Source: Pseudomonadota bacterium (lineage in GTDB: Bacteria; Bdellovibrionota_B; Oligoflexia; Silvanigrellales; Silvanigrellaceae). Taken from it: DNA of 48,405 bases. Under the pieces are notes generated by a model, which saw nothing but the letters and a program-made list of their open reading frames with translations, had not been told where the DNA came from and did no database searches. Positions 1,236 through 7,074 of this stretch are shown here, piece after piece. The translations under genes were made by a program, and so were the position numbers. Position 1 is the stretch's first letter. Each line of letters opens with the position of its first letter. Where the stretch lies: contig JBDLRP010000025.1 of NCBI GenBank assembly GCA_039799905.1, positions 1 through 48,405 of the forward strand. Reading direction: 5' to 3'.

Positions 1236-1946
1236 ATGTCATTGGGTGCTGGTGCCCTCGCGCTCCGTCGCGTGCAGATTCTTGTCGAACCCAAGCAGGT
1301 TCAGTTCAGAGAAATTTTAAAAAAGCTCAAAAAACGGAGTATTTCCCCGCTCGGGCCTGACGACGAGCGCGAAACGAGTACGGGTTGGTGCCATCCATAC
1401 AGTGGCGAGGCCAATTTCGACTTAGCTCACGAGCATCTCTACGAGCAGGCGTTCGTCTTTGGTTTGCGATCTGACGTCAAGCGCATCCCTGGAACTTACT
1501 TCAGGCTGCAAATGAAAAATGCGCTTGAAGCACTGCAGAGCAAGGGAAAGTCGGCACGCGGCGAGCAGGGGCGCTCGCAGGGAAAAAAACTCCGCGATGC
1601 GACCCGCGACAGGCTAAAGCAGGAATTGCTGCGCGGAACTCTTCCCTCCGTCCGCCTGACCGAGATCGTCTGGCATCTCGATTCCAACGAAATTTGGCTT
1701 CTCAGTGCCTCGCAGGCTGTGTATGACGAGTTCGAAAAGCTGTTCGTTGAAACGTTCGGCTGGCCACTTGCGCAATACAACGCAGGCACGATGGGTGTTG
1801 ATTTTAACCGCATGCTGCACGGCTTGTCGGTGTCGCTCGACGAGCACATCAATTTGAGCCCAGCGGATTTCCGCGAGACGCAATCGGACGGTCTGCCTCG
1901 GAGTGTTTCTGCGCCGGCATTGCAAGGTGCGACGGATTTATTTTGA
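1236..1946 (+). CDS. RdgC-like recombination-associated protein (short delta/Bdellovibrionota type)
   Basis: Pattern STGW..P, LRSDVKRIP, LKQELL..TLPS, IVWHLD, FEKLFVETFG resembles the RdgC N-terminal half. GGAG RBS upstream. Confidence 0.6.
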   Translation: MSLGAGALALRRVQILVEPKQVQFREILKKLKKRSISPLGPDDERETSTGWCHPYSGEANFDLAHEHLYEQAFVFGLRSDVKRIPGTYFRLQMKNALEALQSKGKSARGEQGRSQGKKLRDATRDRLKQELLRGTLPSVRLTEIVWHLDSNEIWLLSASQAVYDEFEKLFVETFGWPLAQYNAGTMGVDFNRMLHGLSVSLDEHINLSPADFRETQSDGLPRSVSAPALQGATDLF

Positions 1947-1975: not shown

Positions 1976-2626
1976 ATGATGGACGCACTTCCGCAATTGA
2001 GCCGGTTTGAAAAACTCGGAGAAATCCTTTTTCGTCTGCGCGACTACACACCCATTCCCATCATCATCTGTGCTATCCTTTTTGCTCAGCCGACGTTGCT
2101 CTCGTTGCTTGTCGGTGGGCTTGTCGCACTGACCGGTGAGCTCATCCGCACCTATGGTGTGGCCTACATCGGCACCATCTCGCGCACGCGCAGCTATTCC
2201 AACGGTCAACTGGTCAAAGAAGGCCCTTTTGCGCTATTGCGAAATCCGCTTTATTTCGGAAATTTGGTGCTGAGCATCGGTTTGTCTTTGATGTGCAATG
2301 TAAATTGGCTGCCGCCGGTGGTTGTTGCGGTTTTTTATGCTCAGTACATTCCAGTTGTGGCGTGGGAAGAGCGTAAACTCACTCACATCTTTGGTGATGC
2401 TTATGCGCAATACAAAGCATCTGTGCCGAACCGCTGGTTTCCGAGTTTGTCACGCATCCGTGAGACAAGTCTGTATGCGGCTCCGCAATCGTGGGGGCCG
2501 GCACTGCGTAGCGAGAAGCGTACGCTGACCTCGGTCATCACCTACTTTGTGATCATGTCAGTAATTTATTGGGCATTGCAGTCCGGTGCGATGGAATTGC
2601 CACTCATAACCCATCTCTTGCGCTAA
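1976..2626 (+). CDS. isoprenylcysteine carboxyl/phospholipid methyltransferase family membrane protein
   Basis: Motifs LVKEGPFALLRNPLYFG and EERKL...FGDAYAQYK..VP; several TM segments. Confidence 0.85.
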   Translation: MMDALPQLSRFEKLGEILFRLRDYTPIPIIICAILFAQPTLLSLLVGGLVALTGELIRTYGVAYIGTISRTRSYSNGQLVKEGPFALLRNPLYFGNLVLSIGLSLMCNVNWLPPVVVAVFYAQYIPVVAWEERKLTHIFGDAYAQYKASVPNRWFPSLSRIRETSLYAAPQSWGPALRSEKRTLTSVITYFVIMSVIYWALQSGAMELPLITHLLR

Positions 2627-2716
2627 GACTGTCTAAAAAAAATACAATCTAATGCGCATTTCCAGCACTTTTCTTCACATCTGACAAGTTGTCTCTGCAC
2701 TGCAAAATTCTCCCGT

Positions 2717-2742
2717 TCAACCTTCACAGAGAGCACCGAAGA
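2717..2742 (+). promoter_or_regulatory. weak sigma28-like promoter for the putative sRNA
   Basis: TCAA-N14-ACCGAAGA; the spacer is 1 nt short. It would place the start near 2750, the first base of the closing helix. Confidence 0.3.
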
Positions 2743-2749
2743 CTTTTTC

Positions 2750-3008
2750 AGTGGGCTCTGCAGGCGGTTTTGCAACGCTTCAGGGACGAAGAAAAAAAGC
2801 CCCGTTGCGCAGGATGCGCACCTGAATCTTAAAAAGCAGATTCAGGACTGCCAGTAAGGCCGATTCTCAGGAAGAGAATCTGTTGTGGGGGCGAGTTGAT
2901 CGACCGTCGCAGGGCGGAGCCCACTTTGTTCCCCGTGCCCGCCCTAAAAGCTGGGCGCGGGGTACCCCAAAGAAGAGGGCCGGCAGGAAGCCGGCCCTTT
3001 GTATTTTT
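2750..3008 (+). ncRNA. putative CsrA/RsmA-binding sRNA (CsrB/RsmZ-like, multiple GGA hairpins)
   Basis: GGA-loop hairpins cttc-AGGGAC-gaag (2778-2791), tgcgc-AGGAT-gcgca (2806-2820), gattctc-AGGAA-gagaatc (2862-2880) and agggccggc-AGGAA-gccggccct (2976-2998, followed by a T-rich tail). A 12-bp long-range helix pairs 2750-2761 with 2914-2925. No convincing ORF. Confidence 0.6.
2976..3008 (+). terminator. intrinsic terminator (possibly bidirectional)
   Basis: 9-bp GC-rich stem followed by ttgtattttt. An A-rich tract upstream could serve the convergent protease gene. Confidence 0.6.
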
Positions 3009-3069
3009 AAAAGTAGAAGTTCTGCAGCGGAAACTGACAAAAGCAATACGATGGCGAAAGATTATCGCT

Positions 3070-4143
3070 TCACAGACCAGGTGATCCACAAATCTCTAGA
3101 TCTATGCACTCACAATGCTTTGGATAGCAGGCAGCACCTCCTCCATATTTTTCGCAGTTTGCCAGTTGTGAATTGTTGCAGTTTCCGTAGCCGTCAGAGG
3201 GTTTGAATGCTCCGACCGGTGGTTGTCCGACCTGCGGCTGTCCGACCTGCGGTTGTCCGACCTGCGGTTGTCCGACCTGCGGTTGCTCATCTTGCTGCTG
3301 TCCGACTTGCTGGTTGCTTGAGATTGGTTTTTGCGGAGTGGGCTGCGCAACTGGTTTGGGGTACAGCGCGTTGACTGTTTGAATGTCTCTGGTGGAAAAG
3401 CCGACAGCCACAGCTGAGTTGCGTTCGAATATGTAGCAGTAATTCATTATCGAATATGGATCATAGCTTGTTCCAACAACTCTAATGCTATTCGCGTTTC
3501 CTGTATCTTTCCATACGTTAAAATGCACGGCGGCTGTTTCCTGTGTTTTTGAACAGGTGGTTTTCGCCTGCGCGTGCTCGTGAAGCATGCCTACTGCGTG
3601 ACCCATTTCGTGCAAAAACGTCGACTGGAATTCCGAAATAGCGGTGGAAATTCCAATCTTGCTTTGCGTGGTTTTAAAAATGTGTGAGTTCAATGCGAGA
3701 GTGGGTTCAGCTCGAACCGTCGACGGAATTCTTTGAGGCAGGCCGAACGTTTGAATGCCGTAGATTTTTCCATTGCCGATTTGACTCATGCCGTGAAGCC
3801 GGTTGCGGATGTTTTCTGGATCATTGGTGGGGAAATCCTCAGCGTCCCACCAAGTCAGCCTGATTTCATTTGCCGAACTCTTGGGGCCACACGGACCAAA
3901 CCCCTGAAGCGACAGGTTTGTGCGTGCAAACTGATCTCTGGCGTGAGCGAATAGTGCTCCAGTGACATTCACAAGCTCACGATCCGCAAATCCTCTGCTT
4001 TCATAGCAAACGTTCAGTGTGTTTCCTCCATATGAGGTGCCCGCGACTCCCCAGCCAGAAGTGCGGCTGTCGGACTGTTTGTTGCAACCGAGGACAAAGT
4101 GACTTGTGCAAAGTGCAAGAACAACTGGGAATAATGTTTTCAT
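3070..4143 (-). CDS. metzincin (astacin/M12-like) zinc metalloprotease lipoprotein
   Basis: Lipobox VLGC, HEMGHAVGMLHEH zinc motif, SIMNY Met-turn, Q/P-rich linker and Cys-rich C-terminus. Confidence 0.85.
   Translation of the reverse strand: MKTLFPVVLALCTSHFVLGCNKQSDSRTSGWGVAGTSYGGNTLNVCYESRGFADRELVNVTGALFAHARDQFARTNLSLQGFGPCGPKSSANEIRLTWWDAEDFPTNDPENIRNRLHGMSQIGNGKIYGIQTFGLPQRIPSTVRAEPTLALNSHIFKTTQSKIGISTAISEFQSTFLHEMGHAVGMLHEHAQAKTTCSKTQETAAVHFNVWKDTGNANSIRVVGTSYDPYSIMNYCYIFERNSAVAVGFSTRDIQTVNALYPKPVAQPTPQKPISSNQQVGQQQDEQPQVGQPQVGQPQVGQPQVGQPPVGAFKPSDGYGNCNNSQLANCEKYGGGAACYPKHCECIDLEICGSPGL
3211..3285. repeat. 15-bp coding tandem repeat (QPQVG x4 plus degenerate copy)
   Basis: gg(t/c)tgtccgacctgc units at 3221, 3236, 3251 and 3266, with partial flanking copies. 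Confidence 0.95.
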
Positions 4144-4167
4144 TTTTCAACCCTCAAAATCTTCAAG

Positions 4168-4195
4168 GTATCGGAGTGACTTCGTTGGAGTATGA
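4168..4195 (-). promoter_or_regulatory. sigma28-like promoter
   Basis: TCAT-N16-TCCGATAC on the minus strand, 25 nt upstream of the metalloprotease ATG. Confidence 0.5.
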
Positions 4196-4448
4196 GAACT
4201 AATTTTTATTGGCTCATTTTTAATTTCCGCGGATGCGCTGATATTTTTACAAACAGCTTTTTCAGATGGCTTCGAGCGTGACAGCGACGTGGCCGCGGAA
4301 ACGGACAGCTGAGCTCTTTTCTTAGCGACAAAAAAAGGAACTGTAGAATATTGTTAGTTTGTGGGCTGTTCTGAAGTTCCTGGTTATTTATCAAACGACT
4401 TACATGTTGCTTTGCTCAGTGCTCCTCAGAACGTACGGTTTCAAAAGC

Positions 4449-4475
4449 TCAAGTTATTTGTCCTCTTTCCGACAG
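4449..4475 (+). promoter_or_regulatory. sigma28-like promoter
   Basis: TCAA-N15-TCCGACAG upstream of the lipoprotein at 4504. Confidence 0.55.
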
Positions 4476-4503
4476 TACGTGGACTGGTGGCGGGGTAAGC
4501 GGC

Positions 4504-5094
4504 ATGAATGACAAGTTTTCTGTTTTTGCGGTCAGCGTTTTTATCGTGGCTGGATGCAATTCCAAAACCGACGATCCCAATGAAGCCGATTTACAGAGCG
4601 GCTCTGCTGGGGCTGCTTGCAGCAATCCAGACAAGTGGACTTCTTCAGCATGCGGCAAAGACACATCCCAAGTTGTAATCCGAGAGGCATTTGGTGTCTT
4701 CCCGAAGATGGATCAAGCCACTCAAGCCAGAGGGTTTCGCTTGTGTGCGGGAAGGGCTGAAGCCTTTGTCAACGGGCGGTGGGAATCGAACGTTTTCGGG
4801 GTTTGGTTGAATGGCTTCAATCTTGGCTGTCACAAGGGAGTCGGTTACAAAATTTCGGGATCCGCGCAAGGCGCGAACGTTGTCACGATTTTCAAACGCG
4901 GTGCATTTGAGGGAAGTGCGAACACGCAAGATTCCGGATTTTTGAAGGACATAAAGACCGGCAAAGAGGTGGGCAGCATCGAGAGAGGTGGATCCGGCAA
5001 TGATTCCAGGCTAGTCGCGCTGTGTATTGAAAGCTATGCAAGCGCTTGTTCGATTTCGGCGAATGGCGGGACTCTGAAGTACGATGCAAAATAA
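4504..5094 (+). CDS. hypothetical lipoprotein
   Basis: Signal peptide with lipobox VAGC, paired Cys, beta-rich mature part; no family recognised. Confidence 0.75.
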   Translation: MNDKFSVFAVSVFIVAGCNSKTDDPNEADLQSGSAGAACSNPDKWTSSACGKDTSQVVIREAFGVFPKMDQATQARGFRLCAGRAEAFVNGRWESNVFGVWLNGFNLGCHKGVGYKISGSAQGANVVTIFKRGAFEGSANTQDSGFLKDIKTGKEVGSIERGGSGNDSRLVALCIESYASACSISANGGTLKYDAK

Positions 5095-5165
5095 GAGCCG
5101 GCGCTGAGCCGGCCCCTCGATTCATTTCCCTGCTGCGCCGCTCAGGCTAAGCAAAACTCAATGAA

Positions 5166-6887
5166 TTATTGCTTGTCGGCCTTGAACATAAACTTCTGTG
5201 TAAATCCAGCAGAGCCGCCGGTTGCCGAATTGCAGACCGGATTTTGATCGACAGATTTCTCCGTCATAACGAGCTCGATCAAAACTTCAGTATCTGACAG
5301 TTTGTTCAGCGCCATGTCGACAGATTCCGCAAAGCGGCAGTTGATGAACGAGTTGCCGCCGTCTTTGGAGCCTGCCGGTACGCCACGGAAATAGGTTTTT
5401 TCATCATGCACAGCAGCTGTCGTGTCGCTCGTATAGGTGAGCAGGTTCATGACAAACTGGTTGGTGGAACGCTGCGGGCCGTCGCCGCGCATCACGAATT
5501 GCGATGGTTCTTTTGCACCCCAGTTGAGGTGAACATCGGCAATACATGCGTCGCCATTGTCGCGGTTCTGATAATAGTAGTTCGCATAGCACTGCAGCCT
5601 TTGAAGCTCGCTGCCCGCGCTAGAGCAGGCGCCGTTGTAGTCTGCGTCCCGTACAAAGTTCGCATTGGTCAATTTAACACCATTGGCGTTAACGATACCA
5701 TGAATTCCCTTGCACGTAATTGCCTTGCCGTTCTCTTTGAGGGTTCCCGTATTGCTGCAAACATCCAGTGATTGAATTTTGTCAAAGGGTTGGCAAGAAC
5801 CGTTGTTGTTCCACGTGACAGGATCGTTATGCCAGTTTTTGATTTCCACGGGCGAGCCGTCATCGTAGCGGCAGCCGGAGTCGCGCGAGTTGACGTTGAC
5901 ACTGTAAGCCACTGCACTGTTCGCTGTTCCCTTGCACTTCATGACCTCTACGTCGTTGATTCTGTCAGGCGTGCAGTTTGGAATCGGATAGGTTGTTGTT
6001 GCAGAGGAGCTTTTCCAACCTTGCTCCCAGCCGGCAGTCCACGTAAATCCGCCGTCTCCCAACCCAGAACTCGAGAAGTCGATGCCGACTTTGGCCTTGG
6101 CATCATCATTTCTAAACCCGAGTTTTTGTCCGCAATTTTCGAAGGCAGTCTTTGATTTCCAGATGCCCATCGCATAGGCGTCGGAATTGTCGGTCGTCTT
6201 CTTACCGGCAATGCGTTTCAGATAAATATCCATGCCCTTTGCGGGACCTTTGCAATCGTCACTCCCTGCGGAACAGTCGATAGCCGTCTGATAGCCCTCG
6301 GGAAGATTATCAGTAGCCTTGAGTTTCCAAGTTCCGGTGAAGTCGAAACCGCTGCCGCTGAATGCCTTAACCGCGCTCTTGAAGTTGGCGACGTTTGCCT
6401 TTGCCTTGCCGGTTGCAGTATCGACCTTGATGGTCCCCATGCTGGTGTTGCCAGAGAACGCCAGTCGCGCGTCGCTTTTGGCATCGCCGTCGACGTTCTT
6501 TGAATCAGTGTCTTCAAAGACCATGGTTGCCACAGTGTCTGTGCCATTGAGAATAAAACAGCCGACGGACACCCCATTGGCTTCAATATCGAGCGAGAAA
6601 TTACCGTTGCCGTCCACTTCACCAGTGCCAGCTTTGGGTGGAAACGCAAACGAGACGCAGTAAACCTTGAGTGCGTCGACTTCAAGATTGCTGGCCGCGT
6701 TCAGACCCGCAAGATTTAATGCGGCAGCTGTCGAAGAGTTTTCCAGCGCGAGTTGACCTGAAATGGTAATCGAGGCTCCTTCGCCGAGACCCTCGCTGAC
6801 CGAAGATTTTTTCTTACCGCAACCTGCGGCCGCCAGCACAACCGACATGAGACCCACAGCACAGACATTCCAGCGCGCAGCACTCAT
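5166..6887 (-). CDS. large Cys-rich hypothetical lipoprotein
   Basis: AGGAG RBS before ATG 6887, lipobox AAGC, about 570 aa with many Cys; no family recognised. Confidence 0.8.
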   Translation of the reverse strand: MSAARWNVCAVGLMSVVLAAAGCGKKKSSVSEGLGEGASITISGQLALENSSTAAALNLAGLNAASNLEVDALKVYCVSFAFPPKAGTGEVDGNGNFSLDIEANGVSVGCFILNGTDTVATMVFEDTDSKNVDGDAKSDARLAFSGNTSMGTIKVDTATGKAKANVANFKSAVKAFSGSGFDFTGTWKLKATDNLPEGYQTAIDCSAGSDDCKGPAKGMDIYLKRIAGKKTTDNSDAYAMGIWKSKTAFENCGQKLGFRNDDAKAKVGIDFSSSGLGDGGFTWTAGWEQGWKSSSATTTYPIPNCTPDRINDVEVMKCKGTANSAVAYSVNVNSRDSGCRYDDGSPVEIKNWHNDPVTWNNNGSCQPFDKIQSLDVCSNTGTLKENGKAITCKGIHGIVNANGVKLTNANFVRDADYNGACSSAGSELQRLQCYANYYYQNRDNGDACIADVHLNWGAKEPSQFVMRGDGPQRSTNQFVMNLLTYTSDTTAAVHDEKTYFRGVPAGSKDGGNSFINCRFAESVDMALNKLSDTEVLIELVMTEKSVDQNPVCNSATGGSAGFTQKFMFKADKQ

Positions 6888-7074
6888 AAAAACACTCCTC
6901 AACTTCGGTCCGCAAAGGGACCATGTGATACGAAACGGAACAGCGAAACAACGGACGCACCACTCGGTGCACCCGACCGGCTCAGTATCGGGAAAAAGTT
7001 GGGCTCAACACAGATGAATGTCATTTTGGTAACAGTGCCGATTTTTAATCAACAACGTCTGCAGGCGGTAATTG

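Follow-up and report, generated by a model that had tools for sequence, protein, structure and literature searches.

The window considered here, that is, the whole stretch of 48,405 nucleotides analysed, holds an intergenic element between a plus-strand methyltransferase gene, which ends a block of genes, and a convergent gene encoding an astacin-like peptidase domain (Table 1). The methyltransferase gene does not adjoin the RNA in G011 or in genus g5, and gene content between the element and apt (3010-7000) varies among relatives, several of which have apt directly convergent; this stretch is an insertion-prone site. Within it, five near-tandem 15-nt repeats (3225-3300) encode QPQVG units of the astacin-like protein.

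Table 1. Features of the element and its surroundings in the window, together with look-alike loci in genomes outside Silvanigrellaceae.
Feature	Position	Strand	Remarks
Block ending in the methyltransferase gene	asparaginase 90-1214, RdgC-like 1236-1946		Context only
PEMT/ICMT-type methyltransferase gene (upstream)	1976..2626	+	Context only
Conserved upstream boxes	2683..2705	+	GACAA 2683-2687, GCAA 2702-2705; invariant in 11 genus homologs
Sigma28-like promoter	2716..2742	+	-35 slot TTCAA, 15-nt spacer, -10 CCGA 2736-2739; predicted start ~2750
Conserved core of predicted non-coding RNA	2750..2925	+	Fold, covariation, homologs
Closing helix P1	2750-2761/2914-2925	+	12 pairs, one G-U
Helix P2	2763-2769/2902-2908	+	
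Inner helix P3	2773-2776/2895-2898	+	
HP1, ANGGAX hexaloop AGGGAC	2778..2791	+	GGA in 13/13 genus genomes
A-rich linker	2792-2798	+	
Inner helix P4	2799-2803/2888-2892	+	Every cell paired (100%); both sides changed in 2 pairs
HP2, AGGAX pentaloop AGGAT	2806..2820	+	GGA in 13/13 genus genomes
HP3, structural hairpin, A-rich loop	2821..2846	+	Stem 2821-2829/2838-2846, 9 bp, covarying
HP4, loop AGTAA	2850..2860	+	Site lost in this lineage; GGA in 7/13 genus genomes and in other genera
HP5, AGGAX pentaloop AGGAA	2862..2880	+	GGA in 13/13 genus genomes
Variable hairpin between core and terminator	2930..2963	+	Structure kept, sequence not
Intrinsic terminator, loop AGGAA	2974..3008	+	Stem 2974-3000; also scores on minus strand
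Gene with astacin-like peptidase domain (downstream)	3070..4143	-	Convergent, varies among relatives; context only
G031 look-alike	L363:1424-1675		Between RodZ-like gene and panC
G037 look-alike	L373:1309-1575		Between RodZ-like gene and panC
G040 look-alike	L374:1099-1350		Between RodZ-like gene and panC
G038 look-alike	L375:2435-2666	-	Between RodZ-like gene and panC

The predicted fold is nested, with P1, P2 and P3 enclosing HP1, the A-rich linker and P4, inside which lie HP2 to HP5. An earlier sequence-only reading of the same DNA had located the hairpin stems, their GGA loops, the 9-bp stem and the closing helix correctly, and the folding check that it proposed gave -131.9 kcal/mol for 2740-3020 (z -6.67), with none of 200 shuffles as good. 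Its inventory of sites and helices was incomplete, as it missed the lost site HP4 and the inner helices P3 and P4. Furthermore, the fifth CAGGAC that it counted lies where it was placed but does not stand as a CsrA site, since it forms the 3' arm of the covarying HP3 stem and is not kept (C-G to U-A in 3/11 genus homologs); HP3 itself occurs in all genera with the RNA. Its GGA-bearing terminator hairpin is indeed a predicted intrinsic terminator, although the loop GGA is present in only 6/13 genus genomes. The window copy carries three conserved GGA loops and one terminator loop, among which HP1 is predicted, by the hexaloop rule as given in the accessible part of PMC4005645, to be a high-affinity CsrA site.

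Genome-wide, 875 GGA loops sit on stems of at least 4 pairs, and the element is the sole 300-nt window in the genome with four of them; because 2/10 other loop cores, used as a control, likewise gave one such four-loop window, the single-genome cluster is only moderately beyond chance, and conservation, rather than this cluster, is the real evidence for the element. At gathering score, no family was found in an Rfam search of the window, and the six weak matches over the element (E up to 10) include one related family, RsmY (RF00195), whose 11.6 bits (E 4.9, against a gathering score of 57) are non-significant; an Rfam search of eight homolog or context loci returned nothing relevant. The element is single copy in the genome. 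Both alternatives that the sequence-only reading had flagged, another Rfam family and a REP/MITE repeat, thus found no support, the latter on account of the single copy per genome.

Conservation within the genus is extensive. BLAST recovered homologs in 10/12 same-genus genomes, and model R1, built from the genus alignment, found one copy in each of 13 genomes; two held-out genus genomes score 165 and 171 bits and show further compensatory changes, and a metagenome scan added five loci of genus type. The alignment of 11 sequences gives 53 pairs, in which 99.5% of cells are paired and both sides have changed in 11 pairs, a result equalled by 0/500 shuffles, with the reservation, which applies equally to the g5 counts below, that the same alignments gave the structure and that kin are not independent. 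Compensatory stem changes in HP2 occur in G006 and G009, both held out of model training. The GGA loops are thus kept on covarying stems among relatives, in line with the sequence-only reading. The longest open reading frames in homologs span 0-46 codons, with no constancy, and the same operon lies upstream in 12/13 genus genomes (G011 differs).

Across Silvanigrellaceae, one homolog each was found in 28/33 genomes, representing 6/8 genera. Divergent copies with the same helix order were recovered through synteny and pattern searches in G020, G018, G019, G017, G041 and G046, together with nine more genomes of g5; BLAST and the genus-trained R1 missed every other genus, and their blanks do not signify absence. 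Among the 33 genomes searched, the RNA was not found in G013, G015, G014, G044 and G021; in G014 the contig ends at the syntenic place, and G044 is 72% complete. A synteny search after the RdgC-like and bcp genes yielded no array in four g5 genomes, G013 or G015. Cross-genus MAFFT alignment was too poor for pair counts. An independent alignment of ten g5 sequences gave 44 pairs, with 94.1% of cells paired, 19 two-sided changes and 0/500 shuffles as good, and the model built from g5 alone scores G018, G017 and G020 at 33.5, 32.4 and 24.5 bits. In the window, this model reaches 15.6 bits over 2752-2927 at full length, second to a terminator hairpin at 16.9; homology of the window genus to g5 is supported by the shared architecture and this modest score. 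In g5 a T run directly follows the closing helix, HP4 competes with an alternative pairing in single-sequence folds, and mostly only 1-3 GGA are open.

Loops in Silvanigrellaceae are mostly exact ANGGAX hexaloops or AGGAX pentaloops, with 2-5 GGA hairpins per RNA in the 27 homologs counted. At open GGA sites, the N letter is T in 13, G in 12, A in 12 and C in 1, and the X letter is T in 32, A in 26, C in 15 and G in 5; the A and GGA stay while N and X vary, which is what the CsrA/RsmE rule, as given in the accessible part of PMC4005645, predicts. Flanking genes vary among genera (in g5, an M32 peptidase gene and then prs), which argues against a cis role. That the element is a real, conserved, structured RNA gene candidate is almost certain.

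Upstream of the core, 24 homologs have the CGA of a sigma28-like promoter at a constant distance from the start of P1, with a one-base shift in a single homolog, and their -35 slot reads TT(C/T)A or TCGA. G020 has a canonical TCAAG-N15-ACGA and G019 a TCGAG with a 15-nt spacer; G018 is without a clear match. The window genome uses FliA-type promoters, as indicated by TAAAG, which is counted 22 times with a spacer of 15 and 15 times with one of 16 (vs 3-7 at other spacers), and by such promoters on two of its flagellin genes. Neither TTCAG nor TTCAH, the -35 type of the window copy, is enriched genome-wide, and GTTYA-N16-CGAA is not a genome-wide promoter class; in B. bacteriovorus, the sigma28-type promoter is given as TTAAG-N16-CCGATA in the accessible part of PMC3627812. 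On balance, the RNA is somewhat more probably sigma28-driven than driven otherwise: measured against the FliA form T(A/T/C)AAG-N15/16-CCGA, the conserved -10 supports the sigma28 suggestion of the sequence-only reading, but the -35 of this copy is not of the enriched type. That reading's further link to attack-phase transcription gained no support, nothing showing that Silvanigrellaceae has an attack phase.

The GACAA/GCAA boxes are invariant even in G011, whose upstream gene differs, and a sigma70 scan places a match at 2681-2708 (1 found vs 0.7 expected); they may be a second, sigma70-like promoter or an activator site. Sigma54 was considered for these boxes and rejected, as the spacing, read by eye, does not fit. 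The terminator scores on both strands and is consequently likely shared with the convergent gene. Four RNA runs were examined, of which one gave two flank contigs and none a contig over the element, a hole in contigs that proves nothing.

Equally relevant is the regulatory setting of the host, whose CsrA relatives belong to Silvanigrellaceae, Silvanigrellales and Oligoflexia, in agreement with the Bdellovibrionota-like origin first proposed. The genome encodes one csrA (whose presence the sequence-only reading had asked to see), one fliW, fliA and eight flagellin-domain matches; csrA occurs in 24/25 Silvanigrellaceae genomes searched. CsrA keeps its N-terminal RNA-binding core. As a separate observation, the protein (L001:1213-1659, minus) has 148 aa in total with a long, low-complexity C-terminal tail, and D37 where solved homologs have proline. 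Residue 55 is I in the window genome and I, T or L in 24/24 Silvanigrellaceae CsrAs read (eight g5 genomes lie outside this count), as opposed to N in 11/11 other Oligoflexia. According to the accessible parts of bioRxiv 2020.07.02.184341 and PMC13407953, N55 does not vary among FliW-controlled CsrAs, and binding depends on it; since N55D was the mutant tested, I or T at this position need not abolish FliW binding.

Moreover, csrA and fliW lie within ~1 kb of each other in 11/11 other-family genomes having both vs 0/22 Silvanigrellaceae, and in the window genome they sit on separate contigs beside other genes. All aligned FliW sequences of Silvanigrellaceae are intact and retain the GKQ contact motif, so that control by FliW may continue. 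CsrA of G013 and of G015 is without N55, yet no RNA was found in these genomes. In G021 (1.8 Mb, 94% complete), csrA is kept, and flagellin, fliW and the RNA are all without a match. A search of the genome with E. coli UvrY gave best matches of 24-37% identity over the receiver domain only and no UvrY ortholog, and the UvrY box has at least 4/12 mismatches upstream of 23 homologs.

Candidate CsrA targets on sequence grounds are the leaders of csrA and of one flagellin gene, as well as several genes with sigma28 promoters. In most Oligoflexia loci read (L001:1660-1690; L026-L054), the Shine-Dalgarno site in the csrA leader is covered by a stem whose loop reads ANGGAG, which suggests class-wide CsrA autoregulation in Oligoflexia. 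The flagellin leader has a 5-bp AGGAA hairpin over the ribosome-binding site, as well as two more GGA, and the sigma28-promoter genes have GGA hairpins over the start region. A TTCAG-N15-CCGA leader with several GGA motifs (G000:C21:197627-197715 and L273) precedes a conserved gene, recurs in no fewer than 10 same-genus genomes and is a further candidate target. In four g5 genomes (L255-L258), a FliA-type promoter is followed by a GGA hairpin holding the start codon of a conserved gene without a Pfam match.

Comparison with known systems places the element outside the CsrB/RsmZ families despite its like anatomy. It resembles CsrB/CsrC and RsmX/Y/Z in that short stems present several A(N)GGAX loops, and in its intergenic stand-alone place, a predicted intrinsic terminator and csrA in the genome. 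Unlike them, it has no Rfam match and is predicted to adopt a nested, multibranched fold that a long helix closes, with few sites against the 22 GGA given for CsrB in the accessible part of PMC7652899; it also has no UvrY ortholog or box, a sigma28-like promoter and a host that encodes FliW. The Csr-sponge interpretation of the sequence-only reading, set outside Gammaproteobacteria, accordingly agrees with the fold, the kept loops and csrA, but not with CsrB/RsmZ membership. According to the accessible parts of PMC7652899 and PMC4682653, sponge sRNAs are widespread in Gammaproteobacteria, fliW and BarA-UvrY show an anti-correlation, and whether FliW and sRNAs act jointly on CsrA is left open.

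The FliW-CsrA-flagellin switch of B. subtilis, C. jejuni and G. sulfurreducens shares with the host fliW, a C-terminally extended CsrA and GGA hairpins in flagellin leaders; Silvanigrellaceae differs from it in lacking N55 in 24/24 CsrAs, in unlinked csrA and fliW and in having an RNA antagonist candidate. RsmA-regulating sRNAs were predicted computationally in Geobacter and Oceanobacillus, in single genomes and without validation (PMC5568370, accessible part), and a 2026 paper, in its accessible part, reports no such sRNA characterised in Geobacter; those predictions embody the same idea of CsrA sponges outside Gammaproteobacteria, but the element has family-wide covariation. In the same phylum as the element, and compared here by description only, are the attack-phase sRNAs and merRNA of B. 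bacteriovorus: three of the former have FliA promoters, and a sponge-like role was proposed for merRNA in the accessible part of PMC3627812, in whose text csrA never occurs. MerRNA holds a c-di-GMP riboswitch, whereas the element is without such a match. Full-text literature searched, which mostly excludes subscription journals, contains no report of such an RNA in Silvanigrellaceae, although supplements of RNA-motif surveys may list it.

Taken as sequence evidence, these features make it quite probable that the element is a CsrA-antagonist RNA, and likely a new, non-Rfam one coexisting with FliW. A stand-alone RNA of ~180-260 nt would be transcribed from the sigma28-type promoter at ~2750; through its exposed A(N)GGAX loops, three or four in number, it would bind CsrA dimers, one or two per RNA, and titrate them from mRNA leaders. 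When sigma28 is released late in flagellar assembly, the RNA would then lift the repression that CsrA exerts on flagellin and other sigma28 transcripts, and this feed-forward loop would give the timing that FliW gives in Bacillus. More weakly, loss of N55 and of the csrA-fliW pair may have weakened FliW control and left the RNA as the main antagonist in Silvanigrellaceae.

Look-alikes in four genomes spanning three other Oligoflexia families bear directly on this proposal. They are syntenic with one another and resemble the family RNA in promoter and hairpins, and their homology to it is tentative: combined model R3 gave no significant match in 16 non-family genomes, the best being G031 (18.5 bits, E 0.13), the only one of five RodZ-like/panC loci that it scores. 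The intergenic G031 locus combines two GGA hairpins and a terminator with a perfect TAAAG-N15-CCGA promoter, and G037, G040 and G038 show a similar sigma28 promoter with tandem hairpins at the same place, where no such element lies in G035; G034 is without a panC match. In all look-alike genomes, N55 is kept and fliW is linked. The tandem loops carry GGA in G031 and G037 and read ATGAT, ATGAG and AAGAC, without GGA, in G040 and G038, and this retention in only two of four is the main counter-evidence to the CsrA reading. Either the RNA is older than Silvanigrellaceae, with sites decaying where FliW is strong, or the true ligand reads ANGAN loops.

The latter option corresponds to an unlikely alternative, in which a sigma28-type Oligoflexia RNA binds another protein that reads A-N-G-A-N loops, GGA being merely the commonest version and CsrA binding incidental. 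The GGA-free loops of G038 and G040 sit on kept stems, lost slots within Silvanigrellaceae read AAGAG, ATGAA and AAGAT, and conservation of the nested rod, the A-rich linker and the junction goes beyond what a sponge would require. Nevertheless, most loops in the family keep the exact forms described above, switching between 5 and 6 nt with GGA kept fits CsrA, and homology of the outside RNAs to those of the family is tentative, G031 being the only one that scores. A trans-acting RNA that base-pairs, or serves as a ribosome decoy whose SD-like loops pair with the anti-SD, is very unlikely; CsrA would then be no more than its chaperone or stabiliser. AGGA loops look like Shine-Dalgarno sites, and CsrA is reported to help the B. 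subtilis sRNA SR1 pair with mRNA (PMC7652899, accessible part), but ATGGA, ACGGA and a free X weaken SD pairing while suiting CsrA, and no long conserved single-stranded seed extends across genera.

The chance that the element acts in cis, either as the upstream operon's 3' UTR/terminator region or as a leader/attenuator for the gene that lies downstream (prs in g5), appears slight indeed. The nearly constant upstream operon of the genus and the prs gene downstream in most g5 genomes speak for it, yet neighbours change among and within genera (G011, G022, G047), the promoter boxes travel with the element and the downstream gene in the window is convergent. Largely refuted, with barely any probability left, is a repeat, mobile element, small-protein gene or divergent housekeeping RNA (6S, SRP, RNase P, tmRNA). 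No tmRNA was found in the window genome by ARAGORN or Rfam, which would leave room for the last of these; against this group stand the single copy per genome, the inconstant open reading frames, the absence of a tRNA-like arm in the element, the T-arm element on C41 and the location elsewhere in the genome of 6S, RNase P and SRP-like RNAs (the SRP match just under cut-off).

Beyond the CsrA-antagonist reading itself, a broader scenario is tentative and rather doubtful: an independently evolved, sigma28-driven CsrA-sponge RNA present throughout Oligoflexia, with intact FliW in some families, would have taken over CsrA control in Silvanigrellaceae, where N55 was lost and csrA split from fliW. 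If true, Silvanigrellaceae would be a living second example of the protein-to-RNA handover made by Gammaproteobacteria. The family offers a defined candidate in which a single RNA, CsrA and FliW come together with predicted target leaders and with variants that have naturally lost sites. It also yields a new RNA model with which to annotate a phylum whose CsrA control is little known.

Pattern matches were also considered as further copies and rejected, being coding sequence or mRNA leaders in 20/20, 2/2 and 18/20 cases in three sets and in all among the matches listed in one more. Elsewhere in the genome, an intergenic element at G000:C41 ~83700-84010 (minus; L022) carries a T-arm together with an acceptor-like helix, the order of the two being unusual; it is possibly a tmRNA, divergent or permuted, or else some other tRNA-like RNA.
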